A stretch of 64,000 nt of DNA from Girardia tigrina (Eukaryota). This document shows positions 235 to 59,956 of the stretch, piece after piece. Location: contig MQRK01227526.1 in assembly GCA_001938485.1 (NCBI GenBank), forward strand, positions 1-64,000, read 5' to 3'. The notes under the pieces were generated by a model. The model was given only the letters and a program-made list of their open reading frames with translations. It was not told the DNA's origin and did not search any database. The translations under genes were made by a program, and so were the position numbers. How positions within the stretch are numbered: position 1 is the first letter of the stretch; each line of letters opens with the position of its first letter.

Positions 235-395
235 TATTCGCATTGTGATTTCCTTTATTACTGACTTGAGCCCATTTTCGTAATTATATTATAGTAAGAA
301 GTAAATTAAATAAATTAAAATAAAAGTAAAAAAATGACTAATGAAAAACTAAATAAAATAAAATAATAATTTAAATTTGGTGATTACTAATTACC
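235..395 (+). mobile_element. Unclassified element, terminal segment (copy A)
   Basis: TATTCGCATTGTGATTTCCTTTATTACTGACTTGAGCCCATTTT aligns without gaps to 23265-23308 and to the reverse complement of 59913-59956; the match to copy D extends through GTAATTATATTATAGT; an A-rich tract follows. Confidence 0.65.
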
Positions 396-408
396 AAAAG
401 TTAAATAA

Positions 409-540
409 GGGCTTGTTCGCATACTACGTAACGTGAAAAAAATCTTTTTATAGACACCCCATCCCTCCCTGTAACAAAAAAAACCTTGGAACTCCACCCC
501 CATCCAGACTTAACGTAACAAATATTTTTCCATATTAAAA
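409..540 (+). mobile_element. DNA transposon terminus fragment (Zator/Harbinger-like GGG...TACGTAACG end)
   Basis: TAA|GGGCTTGTTCGCATACTACGTAACG followed by C-rich subterminal blocks; no partner end found. Confidence 0.3.
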
Positions 541-559
541 TCATAGGTTAAACTTATTA

Positions 560-2420
560 TCATAAAATGGTCGGCAAAGTGCCATAACTATTAGTTAGTG
601 GCCTAATATTAAAATATTTAAAAAACTCCCCATTAAATTCTTTTCGGCAAACTCCTTGTAGCATCTTTCTACTGGACATTGGTGACGTTTGTCTCTCTCG
701 TTCGGTACAATTCTTCTTTGGTACAGTTGTTCTTGTCCTATTGAGTCTTCCTGATCGAATTAAGGAGTTTATGTATGTTTCCCTCGATACAGTAGGATCT
801 CTGTGATTGATGCGGTTAATGAAATCTCCATACACCGCATCATCCACAAATAGCCACTGTATGTCCACTCGAAGACATTCCGAAATTGATTGCTTCTTTC
901 TCCCACTGATCTTTTTCCCCATTTGTATTTCTCCCTTCCAGATTCGTTTGATTGTCTCGTACTCTTCTGAAGTTTCCGTCTTACTGTGGAAAGTAAGCCG
1001 TTTACTNGCGATAATATCCATGGGATGTGGGACTCCAATGTCCAGGATGTCCATACGGATCTTTTCAATTTTTTGTTTCTTCCTAACTATGCGCGTGCAT
1101 AGGTTATGAAGGGCATGCAATTTCTTAATGTTCTTGTCCGCAGTTCTCCAGCTTTCACAGCCGTAGTAGACTACAGAGAATATGCATGCGTTGATTACTT
1201 TCATCATACTCAGTTTGGAGCTTTTCAGCACTGGTCTCAGATCCCGGATCTTCTGGGTTCCTTTCTTGATTCTTTCTTTCACTTCCGCGTCCACATTTCC
1301 CGCTGAAGAGATCGTGGATCCTAGGTAACAAAAGATAGAGACCCACTCAATACCGGCCTCAAGTTGGTGCCCAGCAGTAAGGATCCGAGTATCTCCGTTT
1401 ATGTTCAAAACTTTGGTTTTACCGATGTTAATTTTGAGACCTAAATCTAAAAAAGATGCATTTAAAATGTTCAAATTATTTATCAAGTTGTTCCAGTCCG
1501 TGTCGATGAGGTAGAAATCGTCAGCATAGGCTAGTCTGTTGATCTCAAGGAAGCTTCCATCTTCATGTTTCATCATCACTCCTCCAGAGAGATAGTTCAA
1601 TATTGCTCTTTTCACAACCGTGTCGAATACAATATTGAACAGGAGCGGCCCTAAAACACAACCTTGACGCACTCCTTTCTCCATGTTGAAGGTTTCATCA
1701 ACTATAGAACCTTCGAATCCCTCATGGAAAGCTTTGATGATCTCTAACATTCGCCTCCTTATCCCTTGTCTCTTTAAACAGCTCCAGAGAGACTCCCGGG
1801 GGACACTGTCGAATGCCTTCTTCAAGTCGATAAAGATAACATACATATTAATATTCTTGTATCGCGCTTCCTCCTGCAATTTCCTCAAGATACTTATAGC
1901 CAACTGAGTTCCTCTGCCCGGCCGGAATCCATACTGCCACTCGTCCAGTATCGCTTCGGTGATCGGAGTGATTCGGTTCGCGATGATTCTGGCTAGAATC
2001 TTTCCTCCTACATCTAAAAGAAAAATGCCTCGGAAGTAATTTGGATCTTTTCGAGAGCCTTTCCCTTTGAAAAGAACCACCACTTTGGCCTCTCTCCAAC
2101 TAGGTGGGAATGCCTCTAATCCGTTCCATATGTTCCTAAAGCACTCCTCCAATAGGGTTAGTATTTTCACACTCCCCACTTATAGATTCCAGGGATCAAT
2201 CCATCAGATCCCGCGGCTGTCCCACTCTTCAACTGCTTCACTGCCTCTGTTATTTCTTCTCTCGTCGGAGGAGAATCCAAGTCATCGAGATTTAGAGTGT
2301 CTCCAGCGATATCAGTCCGTTCCTTCTGCTCTAATGGGGCCCTAAAAAGATTATAGAAGTGGTTGGTCAGCTCCTTGTTCCCAATAGGGTTCGAGGGAGT
2401 ACACAAAGTGTTCTCCTTTG
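560..2420 (-). mobile_element. RTE-clade LINE, 5'-truncated ORF2 (reverse transcriptase)
   Basis: ORF 560-2179 has WREAKVVVLFKGKG, QYGFRPGRGT, FIDLKKAFDSV, GVRQGCVLGPLLFN, YADD, YLGS and YGCESW; a frameshifted upstream part (KSGTAAGSDGL) runs to ~2420; frameshifted C-terminal HQCPVERC finger. Confidence 0.93.
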
Positions 2421-2670
2421 ATTGTGATTTTAATTGTGAAATAAATTGGTAGAACATTTGTACACCACATTTTGAATTATCCAATGGAAAATTGGTTTGT
2501 GTGTTTGGATAATATGTGAATTGTGAATGTCTGTGTGTATAAATTGCGATTGAATATGATATGTATATGTGTGTATGTAGGAAATAGGAAATTGGATTGG
2601 TGAATGTGTGTATGATTTTTTTTTGTAAAATTTGTAACAATTTCCTGAACATAATTGTTGAAACCGATCA

Positions 2671-57069: not shown

Positions 57070-57079
57070 TTATTAAGAG

Positions 57080-57570
57080 CCTTTACGAAAACGCAAAGAG
57101 AAAAGTGTTGGCAAGTGAATAATTTAGCGCCTAGTTTAAATCATCAGTAGGAGTAAGACAAGGTTGCATTCTTTCACGAACACTGTTCCACCTTTTCCTT
57201 GGGAGAATTTTTATCGATGCAATAGACGATCTGGATGAAGTTGGAATAAGCTGCGGAGGAACATGAATAACCAACCTACGATTTGCTGACTACATAGATC
57301 TAATCGGCAAAGATGACGCAGAGATTCAGGAACTTACGAATAGATTACACAAAGCGTCAAACAAATTTAGAATGGAAATCAACTGACAAAAACGTTTCAG
57401 GAAACCATAACAACCAGGTTAAACTGGAGATTTACATTGAAGGGAGAAGCTGGAACAAGTTAAGAGTTTCAAATACTTAGACTCTTCTATCACAGAGAAT
57501 GGGGGAAGCGAAGAAGAAATCAGAAGCCGGATTGGTATTGCAACAACCTCAATAATTAAGCTTAGCACAG
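57080..57570 (+). mobile_element. RTE LINE RT fragment
   Basis: GVRQGCILS, NLRFADYIDL, FKYLDS, EEIRSRIG. Confidence 0.8.
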
Positions 57571-57574
57571 TTTT

Positions 57575-59760
57575 TAACCTCAAAGAAAAATATCCACTAC
57601 CATGAATAGTAGAAATGTTGGATAAAATCGCAAGTAAATCATTTTTTTCAACTTTAGATCTGAAGAAAGCGTTCCATCAAATTCCGATACACCCGGATGA
57701 TGTGCAGAAGACAGCGGTTACTACTCCGTTCGGATTATTTGAATATCAGATTATGCCATTCGGATTTCGCAATGCCGCCTAGATGTTCTAACGCCACATG
57801 GATTCTCTGCTGCAAGGCTCTGAATCATTTTCCGCATCATTCATCGACGATATAATAATTTTTTCAGATTCAGGAGAAGAACACGAACGACATCTATCAA
57901 CAATTCTCCAAATCTTGGACAAGAATTCCTTGAAGGTCAACAACGAAAAATGCGTCCTGCGTTCAACTGAGGTACAGTATTTAGGGTTCCTTATATCGAA
58001 CACTGGCGTGGAACCTTGTCAAAAGAGAATCAATGAAGTTGTCAACATAAGAGAATCCGATAACACGAAAACACTCAGGCGATTTATCGGAGCGACCACA
58101 TTCTATTAATGGATGGTACCAAACTTTTCACAAACATTTACCCCGTTACATGATCTCCTGGTCGCAGCTAAAGTCAACAGAAGAATCCGACTCAACGAGA
58201 CCCAAAAACAAGCATTTGTTGCAATTAAACAGAAGCTAAAAGATATATTCAAGATGCATCCATTCAATCAATATAAAGAACTTATTTTATTCACAGATGC
58301 TTCAGAAACAGCAGTTGGAGACAGCCTGAACCACGAAATCAACCAAAAATTAGCTCCGATTGCATTCTTTTCCAGAAAATTAGGGCAGGCCGAGAAGAAA
58401 TACTCGACATTTGATCGCGAGCTACTCGCAATATATCTAGCAGCAAGGAAATTCAAACACTATCTTGAAGGGTCTTGGGTTCGAATACAAACTGACCACA
58501 AGCCATTACTGGGCATTCAAACAATGAAAGAACCGTCCAACCAACAATGGCGGTACATTGAGCTCTTGAACCAGTTTTCTTTTAGATTGGAGTACGTTAA
58601 AGGAGCCGAAAATGGGGTTACAGATTTCTTTTCGAGGGCTGATGATAGCATTACAAACGAAGCAGCAGTGATGACGATAACCGAAGCTGATATTATCAAT
58701 GAACAGAAAAAAAGAGAAAGAAGAAATACTCAGCAACAACAGCTTCAAAACAAAAACGATAAGAGATATTCTTTTCGATCGCAGTAGTCTCGCAGGCGTA
58801 AATAAAACCATAGATCTTATTCGTTCTAGATATGCATGGCCGCGAATGAAGGCCGAAATATGAAAATTGGTGCTAAAATGTCATTCATGTCAAGCAAAGA
58901 AAATATTGAGACATACTAAATCCAAAATTTGCTCAATTCCGGATAGGGGCCGGTTCAAAATTCTGCATATGGATATTGTTGGTCCACTACCATCTTCAAA
59001 TGGTAAAAAATCTATGATAACTTTTATAGACAGGCAAACTTCATGACCAGAAGTCGTATCCGTTCATGATATAACCACGACATCAATCATCAAAGCCCTA
59101 ATAAACACGTGGATCAGTCGTTTTGGTCCCCCGGACCAAGGAAGGCAGTTAATATCAACTCAATTCAATGACTTGTGCAAAAAGTTGAGTATAGAGCACC
59201 GACATACAAAGGCATACCACCCGGAATATAACGTAAAAATCGAAAGATTCCATCGCTCGTTAAAAAACGCTCTCAGGACACATTCCCACAATGCAGAACA
59301 AACATGGGTCCGTAATCTACCAATAGTAATGATGGCACTGACAAATGCCCACAATAACTGGATCCAAAGCTTACCCAGCTCAACTTCTATATGGAACCTC
59401 CACTAGCTTACCGGGAGATTTGATTTTAGATGAAGACAGAAACACACAATACACTGGGGGAGACGTCAAAGCGGCCGTTACAGCTCATGAAGCTCAACTG
59501 ATTCTCAAGCAAACTACCCGACGAATCTTTGTAACAAAAGCTCTGGAAGATTGTGAACAAGTATGCGTACGTAATGAAAACCCATCCTCCCTCAAACCAA
59601 GATACGATGGACCATATCAAGTTATAAGCCGTTCCAGTGACATGAAAACCCTACTCATCAACATCGATAATGAGCAGAAAAGGGTCACTATTGACCGAGT
59701 AAAACCAACTTTCACTCCGAAAGATGCCATATAATTCCCAGGGGCTTATGTAAAGTAATC
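57575..59760 (+). mobile_element. Gypsy pol (RT, RNase H, integrase) pseudogene with PPT and 3' LTR start
   Basis: [69 protein letters not shown] tract then TGTAA at ~59750. Confidence 0.92.
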
Positions 59761-59895
59761 ACTTTACTTTATAAATTTTTATTAAAATATTAATTATTTT
59801 AATAATAAATCAATTTGTTTAAATCGATGATTGTTGTTGAAAATAAAACTTTTAAAAACCGATTTCTAGTTTTCGTTAAATGGATAATCGTAACA

Positions 59896-59956
59896 ACTAT
59901 AATATAATTACAAAATTGGGCGCCGGTAAGGATCAAAGGCAATCACAACGCGAACA
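59896..59956 (-). mobile_element. Unclassified element terminus, copy D
   Basis: 61-nt match to 235-295; 44-nt core matches 23265-23308. Confidence 0.65.

Follow-up and report, generated by a model that had tools for sequence, protein, structure and literature searches.

The 64-kb window analyzed here (positions 1 to 64,000 of Girardia tigrina contig MQRK01227526.1, 64,000 nt in all) contains four copies, here called A to D, and a probable fifth, E, of a dispersed element whose hallmark in A to D is a left terminus of 44 nt. We conclude that this is a real transposable family, represented by two complete and bounded copies, B and C, which have captured fragments of host genes. The original prediction saw in it either a non-autonomous, promoter-carrying mobile unit with variable cargo or the long terminal repeat (LTR) of a BEL/Pao-like family. 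The first of these descriptions, apart from the putative promoter, is supported by TG...CA ends, 5-bp target duplications and host-gene fragments. The second fits the ends, the duplication and the length range, but the two complete copies are not collinear in the way expected of LTRs from one family.

Ends and boundaries of the family

The left terminus lies where it had been placed, in copies A (235, plus strand), B (22666, minus), C (23265, plus) and D (59956, minus). A hidden Markov model (HMM) built from any three copies recovers the fourth (E 0.0011 for A, 0.002 for B, 1.1e-8 for C and 1.4e-7 for D), whereas unrelated matches reach E 0.76 at best; this search found no fifth intact terminus in the window. 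Over the 44 nt, 39 positions are identical between C and D, 34 between A and C, 33 between A and D, 27 between B and C, 26 between B and D and 21 between A and B, and the likeness of A and D extends to 49 of 61 nt. The four termini are more than chance, with corrections to the earlier description: A begins with TA, while B (22623..22666, minus) begins with TGG and is well conserved over only ~26 nt. An exact 24-mer of the terminus had no occurrence in prokaryote genomes, and a comparison with phages gave five partial AT-rich matches, none of which covered the conserved part.

To locate the right ends, we took the outer five bases of each terminus and looked for CA followed by the same five bases within 8 kb inward. 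A single site was found for B and a single one for C. Copy B (20448..22666, minus) thus measures 2219 bp, runs from TGG to AAACA and is flanked by GATTC (22667..22671 on the outer left and 20443..20447 on the right, both minus). Copy C (23265..24481, plus) measures 1217 bp, runs from TGTT to AAACA and is flanked by GATAC (23260..23264 and 24482..24486, both plus). AAACA followed by GATTC, and AAACA followed by GATAC, each occur once in the window. Exact 5-bp duplications hence mark both complete copies, or two of the four termini; within the 8 kb, no site was found for D and only three AT-rich sites more than 7 kb off for A, which we do not credit. Following the flanks to the other end, as had been suggested, therefore bounded B and C; the outer flanks, described before as unrelated, are in these two copies the target duplications themselves.

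The duplication test needs further support, as a match within 0.5-4 kb of a random position arises by chance at a rate of 0.06 when AACA is required and of 0.32 for CA alone. Moreover, a de novo scan for TG..CA with 5-bp duplications returned 104 pairs, and of the nine with at least two G/C in the duplication seven were unrelated to the family, so this test alone is unspecific; a candidate at 41746-42766 was dropped. The boundaries of B are fixed independently by its decayed-Gypsy flanks, which match adjoining parts of another Gypsy copy at 13230-13520 and continue one another at the duplication. For C, support comes from its last 13 nt, 11 of which are identical in the right terminus of B (20448..20467, minus), and only 0.45% of random AACA-ending pairs do as well. 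The two right ends are not exceptionally alike over 40-100 nt, ranking 5th-8th of ~900 AACA-ending controls or lower. Left and right ends show an inverted match of only four bases (TGTT), and hence no terminal inverted repeat (TIR). Both target duplications fit G-A-T-W-C, which with two sites may be coincidence or may reflect a preferred target.

Inside B lies the window's closest match to the last 20 nt of C (21938..21957, minus; 17/20, the next best in 128 kb being 15/20). It sits on the same strand at position 729 of the copy, after the GT-rich tract and before the cargo, and its terminal CA has been changed. Copy B therefore reads as a core, a dead right end, 1.49 kb of cargo and a working right end, although the dead end is one example noticed after the fact.

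Internal module and cargo

In B and C the left terminus is followed by an A-rich tract, a TATA run, a CACC-TTTGAA-CCAAT block and a GT-rich tract. The motif CACC-n3-5-TTTGAA-n3-6-CCAAT occurs three times in the window (2463 plus, 22113 minus, 23620 plus) against none in 100 shuffles, always on the same strand as a terminus, and three of the four GT-rich tracts in the window come after such a block. The distance from terminus to block is 553 nt in B and 355 nt in C, while in A the block lies past a 1.9-kb piece of a long interspersed nuclear element (LINE). In B the A-rich tract and TATA run occupy 22452..22622 (minus) and the CACC block 22091..22113 (minus), with the GT-rich tract reaching ~21970; a second, degenerate CAC-TTTGAA-AAT copy stands just before the main block (22111-22131, minus). 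In C the terminus, A-rich tract and TATA run fill 23265..23489 (plus), and the block (23620..23641, plus) is again followed by the GT-rich tract.

The first 215 nt of B and C align at 72%, and their A-rich tracts are collinear (0/200 shuffles reach the score). The A-rich tract of A compares weakly with B or C (12/200 shuffles reach the score), and as a caveat one unrelated tract scored 1/200 against A and C. The likeness of the GT-rich tracts is mostly compositional (3 of 200 shuffles for A/C, 14 for A/B and 34 for B/C). After the GT-rich tract, A and C have another 140 nt in common (23798..23937, plus, in C, collinear with 2614-2755 in A), including the motif AATAAAAATTGG; 0.6% of 1500 AT-matched controls do as well, whereas B does not share it (55%). 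The matching module that had been proposed for A at 2463-2700 comprises the CACC block, a GT-rich tract and an AATAAA motif (2463..2755, plus). Judging from these motifs, the module could carry a promoter. According to PMC4176359, the canonical CHR element of cell-cycle genes has the sequence TTTGAA.

The cargo of B consists of host-gene fragments. Next to its right end lies a piece of UBA1, the ubiquitin E1 (20468..20623, minus; ThiF E 2.5e-8, UBA1 E 3.1e-9), which stops 20 nt short of the end. It is preceded by a broken tandem chromodomain fragment of the CHD family (20702..21004, minus; CHD1 E 1.4e-5; Pfam Chromo E 0.0015, under the curated cut-off), which may be of the CHD6-9 type, the match to CHD6 itself being weak (E 1.5). 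A protein search with the CHD piece, confined to 'longer' lengths, gave no match among 803 candidates. A 163-aa open frame in the same copy (21219..21710, minus) has no relative that we could find. C carries an orphan frame with one internal stop that reaches its right end (24003..24479, plus). A protein search with it, likewise at 'longer' lengths only, found nothing among 631 candidates, and its sole representative match, P0004 (E 1.9e-14), was set aside as a short-repeat artifact. The ESM Atlas held no usable match for the orphan frames of B and C.

A 123-aa frame in A was scanned against Pfam and NCBIfam only. The same copy also holds a broken ADCY9-type adenylate cyclase C1a exon (3055..3579, minus; E 1e-23), 66% identical over 177 residues to record P0002 and interrupted by one stop. 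As the homology starts after a pyrimidine run and ends at a GTATGT donor, the piece looks like one exon with intron flanks; the rest of P0002 has no other match in the window. We regard the cyclase piece as probable, not certain, cargo of A, because the right end of this copy is unproven. No donor of any cargo was found in the window.

Damaged copies and the surrounding transposon nest

Copy A retains its left terminus, with the 61 nt common to D, and an A-rich tract (235..408, plus; HMM), after which it is interrupted from ~409 to 2420, mainly by a LINE reverse-transcriptase fragment that is not family sequence (560..2420, minus; domain scan). The earlier view of a copy spanning 235 to ~3770 with an inserted LINE is upheld for the interruption, but the end at ~3770 (a tentative GAACA right end at 3762..3774, plus) comes without a target duplication. 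Aligning the LINE pieces that flank the right part of A did not fix the boundary at 3774, and an inverted left-type end on that side was rejected as unsupported (71, 55 and 11 of 200 shuffles). Inside A, after TAA, 409-530 is the start of a short element that resembles the end of a PIF/Harbinger miniature inverted-repeat transposable element; its other end was not found.

Copy D is a 61-nt left-end stub (59896..59956, minus) that stops at CGTAACA. With TGTAAAG at 59748, this fits the LTR ends TGTNANR...CGTNACA listed in PMC3601003, so that D is a stub truncated by a Gypsy LTR of 148 nt, which ends at 59895. That D is itself the end of the Gypsy LTR was rejected, since the likeness of A and D stops exactly at the CGTNACA end; a right end of D at 54801, with a four-base match, was rejected as chance. 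Copy E, an A-rich tract at 22925..23140 (plus; 0/200 shuffles against B and 0/200 against C), is probably a decayed fifth copy into which C inserted, although its terminus is not significant. B, C and E all fall within 4.4 kb of one another. To the right of C and within the probable copy E, 24487-24860 is coding-like on the minus strand and has no Pfam match.

The window has 30% G+C, no CpG depletion and 628 Ns. Broken sequences of LINE, Gypsy, Penelope and hAT elements crowd it, as would suit an invertebrate animal genome; its protein-domain scan covered 50 of the 150 open reading frames (ORFs) of at least 70 aa. No Rfam model matched at the gathering score and no tRNA was found. Nested insertions (B, E, C and, at ~19500-20290, an AT-rich block) have broken a decayed Gypsy copy (19288-25290) into four or more pieces. 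A second Gypsy copy at 10309-14700 is bracketed by repeats (9724-10321 and 14634-15320) that are 99% identical, contain a tandem unit of 95 bp and are probably its LTRs. Beside the nest, a CpG-rich frame with an RRM-domain fragment (25630-26292, plus; Pfam E 3.6e-7) may be the cargo of another element; no family terminus was found in that region. Two exon-like host pieces lie elsewhere: a cysteine-rich one without a significant database match (42059-42410, plus), which we assume to be laminin-G/EGF-like, and one with a weak short-chain dehydrogenase match (34499-34762, minus; E 0.005). There is also a hAT element (43146-45634) whose ORF codes for 600 aa and whose inverted ends measure ~75 nt, and an unclassified 580-bp direct repeat at 96% identity (6998-7577 and 46728-47306). 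Two near-perfect palindromes (37104-37443, 96% over 340 nt; 43431-43719, 98% over 289 nt), one duplicating the end of a Penelope reverse transcriptase and one at the start of a hAT ORF, may have arisen by template switching or be artifacts of assembly. The labels Harbinger-like, RTE-like and CsRn1-like for elements of the window are tentative.

Origin of the family and comparison with known systems

We tentatively favor reading B and C as solo LTRs from a retrotransposon family of the BEL/Pao-like type, in which the long variable part of the LTR has gathered pieces of host genes. Solo LTRs would explain the TG...CA ends and the 5-bp duplication, and also why TIRs are missing and a promoter-like block is present. 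LTR ends of the form TGTT...AACA, together with TATA, AATAAA and GT/T-rich stretches, are listed in PMC3601003; in Drosophila, 5-bp duplications are given for the Pao group and 4-bp ones for Gypsy (PMC3276498). The lengths of both copies lie within the 100-2,427 bp recorded for BEL/Pao LTRs (PMC3118150). Solo LTRs can also vastly outnumber full elements, with 22,666 against 541 in the counts of PMC6563192, and the capture of partial, multi-gene host sequence by animal LTR elements is described in PMC5131818. Membership of BEL/Pao is plausible but unproven. Under such a scheme, a retroviral-type integrase supplied in trans would have made the insertions, the internal region would have been lost through recombination between LTRs, and host sequence might have come in while the RNA was being reverse-transcribed, through template switching or read-through, to be copied with the LTR from then on. 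The RNA would then more likely run opposite to the direction originally assumed, and would read as a variable, cargo-bearing U3, CCAAT, TATA, a T-rich stretch and the conserved 44 nt as the U5 end. AATAAA occurs 12 times in B and 14 times in C on the strand first assumed and once in each on the other, a bias that would favor the reverse strand as RNA, though A-richness confounds it.

Several observations weigh against this reading. Both copies exceed the BEL/Pao clade medians of 212-754 bp (PMC3118150). They are not collinear along the supposed LTR, in spacer (33/200 shuffles) or in cargo, which is unrelated between them (3-39 of 40 shuffles), and they could be distinct subfamilies. AATAAA is absent after the TATA run on the reverse strand, where the bias may only reflect A-richness, and the full order of TATA, AATAAA and GT/T-rich stretch is found on neither strand. 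No BEL/Pao domain was detected in the ORFs scanned or with six motifs; neither a coding partner nor a paired LTR was found in the window, nor were paired copies around gag-pol. None of the four termini has a paired copy, a primer site or a polypurine tract next to it, though solo LTRs lack these. In the elements presented in PMC5131818, the captured sequence lies between the LTRs and not inside them. Finally, an exon kept with its splice donor and intron flanks suits capture at the DNA level, and the dead right end of B suits the bypassing of an end; solo LTRs explain these two features, like the non-collinear interiors, poorly.

The main rival reading explains these points and is in our view possible, though less likely than solo LTRs. 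It sees in the family a Pack-type, non-autonomous DNA element of the cut-and-paste kind, which has unlike ends and is moved by an integrase-type transposase such as those of Ginger or GingerRoot. Such an element would gain host DNA by gap filling, as in C, or by skipping a damaged right end for a farther one, as in B. Conservation restricted to the ends and one left module, variable length and cargo, several unrelated host genes (one keeping its donor), the dead end at the border of core and cargo, and the clustering of B, C and E are all in keeping with it. GingerRoot combines TG...CA ends with gene fragments in 22 of 77 copies (PMC6839031), and TDD-4/5 give 5-bp duplications (PMC2836005). 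However, Ginger-type elements are described with TIRs of 40-300 bp (PMC2836005, PMC10741241, PMC6839031), compared with an inverted match of four bases here. No integrase-like transposase was found in the ORFs scanned or inside A-D, a conserved promoter-like block would be superfluous, and the dead end is a single post hoc observation. The same feature allows B to be read as a 729-bp unit followed by cargo and a short right end, that is, B and C as collapsed chimeric LTR elements in which an intact LTR of ~730 bp remains, host RNA has replaced the internal genes and the second LTR has been deleted to ~20 bases. Its length is close to the BEL/Pao medians (PMC3118150) and its layout resembles the LTR-retrocopy chimeras of PMC5131818. 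Even so, we judge this improbable, since no primer-site-like TGG follows position 729 of B, C has no internal right end, and two separate deletions, each leaving ~20 nt, would be required.

One-ended transposition, in which the 44-nt end alone would be genuine and the right end no more than an AACA that adjoining host DNA happens to contain, would agree with the unexceptional likeness of the right ends over 40-100 nt and with cargo frames that reach almost to the right end. We give it little credence, because of the agreement in the last 13 nt, the copy of the end of C inside B and the CHD and UBA1 pieces, which lie 80 nt apart and are unlikely to be natural neighbors. Helitrons leave no target duplication, have a 3′ hairpin and end in CTRR. 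If the conserved 44 nt were the 3′ end of a Helitron-type element on the other strand, the CTAG in the outer flank of D and the capture of gene fragments known from Helitrons (PMC6431247) would be accounted for. CTAG is nevertheless missing at A, B and C, A, C and D form no stable hairpin (0 to -1.1 kcal/mol), and the exact 5-bp duplications of B and C largely refute this idea, which we regard as barely credible.

Among the mobile elements of animals, gene capture has been documented in those with TIRs, in Helitrons and, for LTR elements, in their internal region. Integrase-type ends without terminal repeats, combined with fragments of at least two and probably three host genes, fit none of these cleanly. 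If B and C are true solo LTRs, LTRs themselves are carriers of exons; if the family is a true DNA element, a missing transposase family is indicated. On either reading the copies would escape tools that look for LTR pairs or TIRs, and gene annotation would show them as stray pseudo-exons. The presence of five copies in 64 kb suggests that the family is abundant, although the window is a transposon nest and may be atypical. A bolder proposal, which we think unlikely, is an unrecognized class of animal elements with LTR-like TG...CA ends, 5-bp duplications and neither direct nor inverted terminal repeats, which would be moved as DNA by an integrase-type enzyme, capture host exons serially past a damaged right end and place them behind its own CHR-like/CCAAT promoter block, the chimeras being transcribed in dividing cells.

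Our literature search, which had no access to Repbase, Dfam, preprint supplements or most subscription journals, returned no description of this architecture. BEL/Pao solo LTRs resemble B and C in their TGTT...AACA ends, missing TIRs, 5-bp duplications and length, but the copies described here share only ~215 nt and one motif block, and carry host-gene fragments. LTR-mediated retrocopies, as presented in PMC5131818, and maize Bs1 likewise hold partial pieces of several host genes in an integrase-type unit. There, two LTRs bracket the fragments, whereas here we see one unit without a direct repeat, a cyclase piece that keeps its splice donor and a right side with only ~20 nt of element sequence. 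Giant-LTR Gypsy elements (Ogre, with LTRs of 1.9-6.5 kb, and planarian Burro) offer multi-kilobase LTRs and host-derived domains (PMC6431247), but their extra domains lie in internal ORFs. Ginger1, Ginger2/TDD and GingerRoot share the TG...CA ends, with 5-bp duplications in TDD and gene fragments in GingerRoot, and differ in their long TIRs and in duplications of 4 bp (metazoan Ginger) or 6 bp (GingerRoot), so that among Ginger-type elements the 5-bp duplication fits only Dictyostelium TDD (PMC2836005). Pack-MULE, Pack-CACTA and animal Pack-TIR elements are similarly non-autonomous and variable in length, with exon pieces and their intron flanks, and can form hybrid ends following terminal damage (PMC13317346, PMC8277862). 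Pack-type elements are, however, defined by TIRs, in animals mostly those of hAT and Tc1/mariner, and have other duplication lengths; our copies have the captured fragments, but no TIRs of a known DNA superfamily on their flanks. The family thus lacks a feature that defines Ginger, one that defines Pack-TIR and one that defines Helitron elements, and it works like an integrase-inserted unit of the LTR type.

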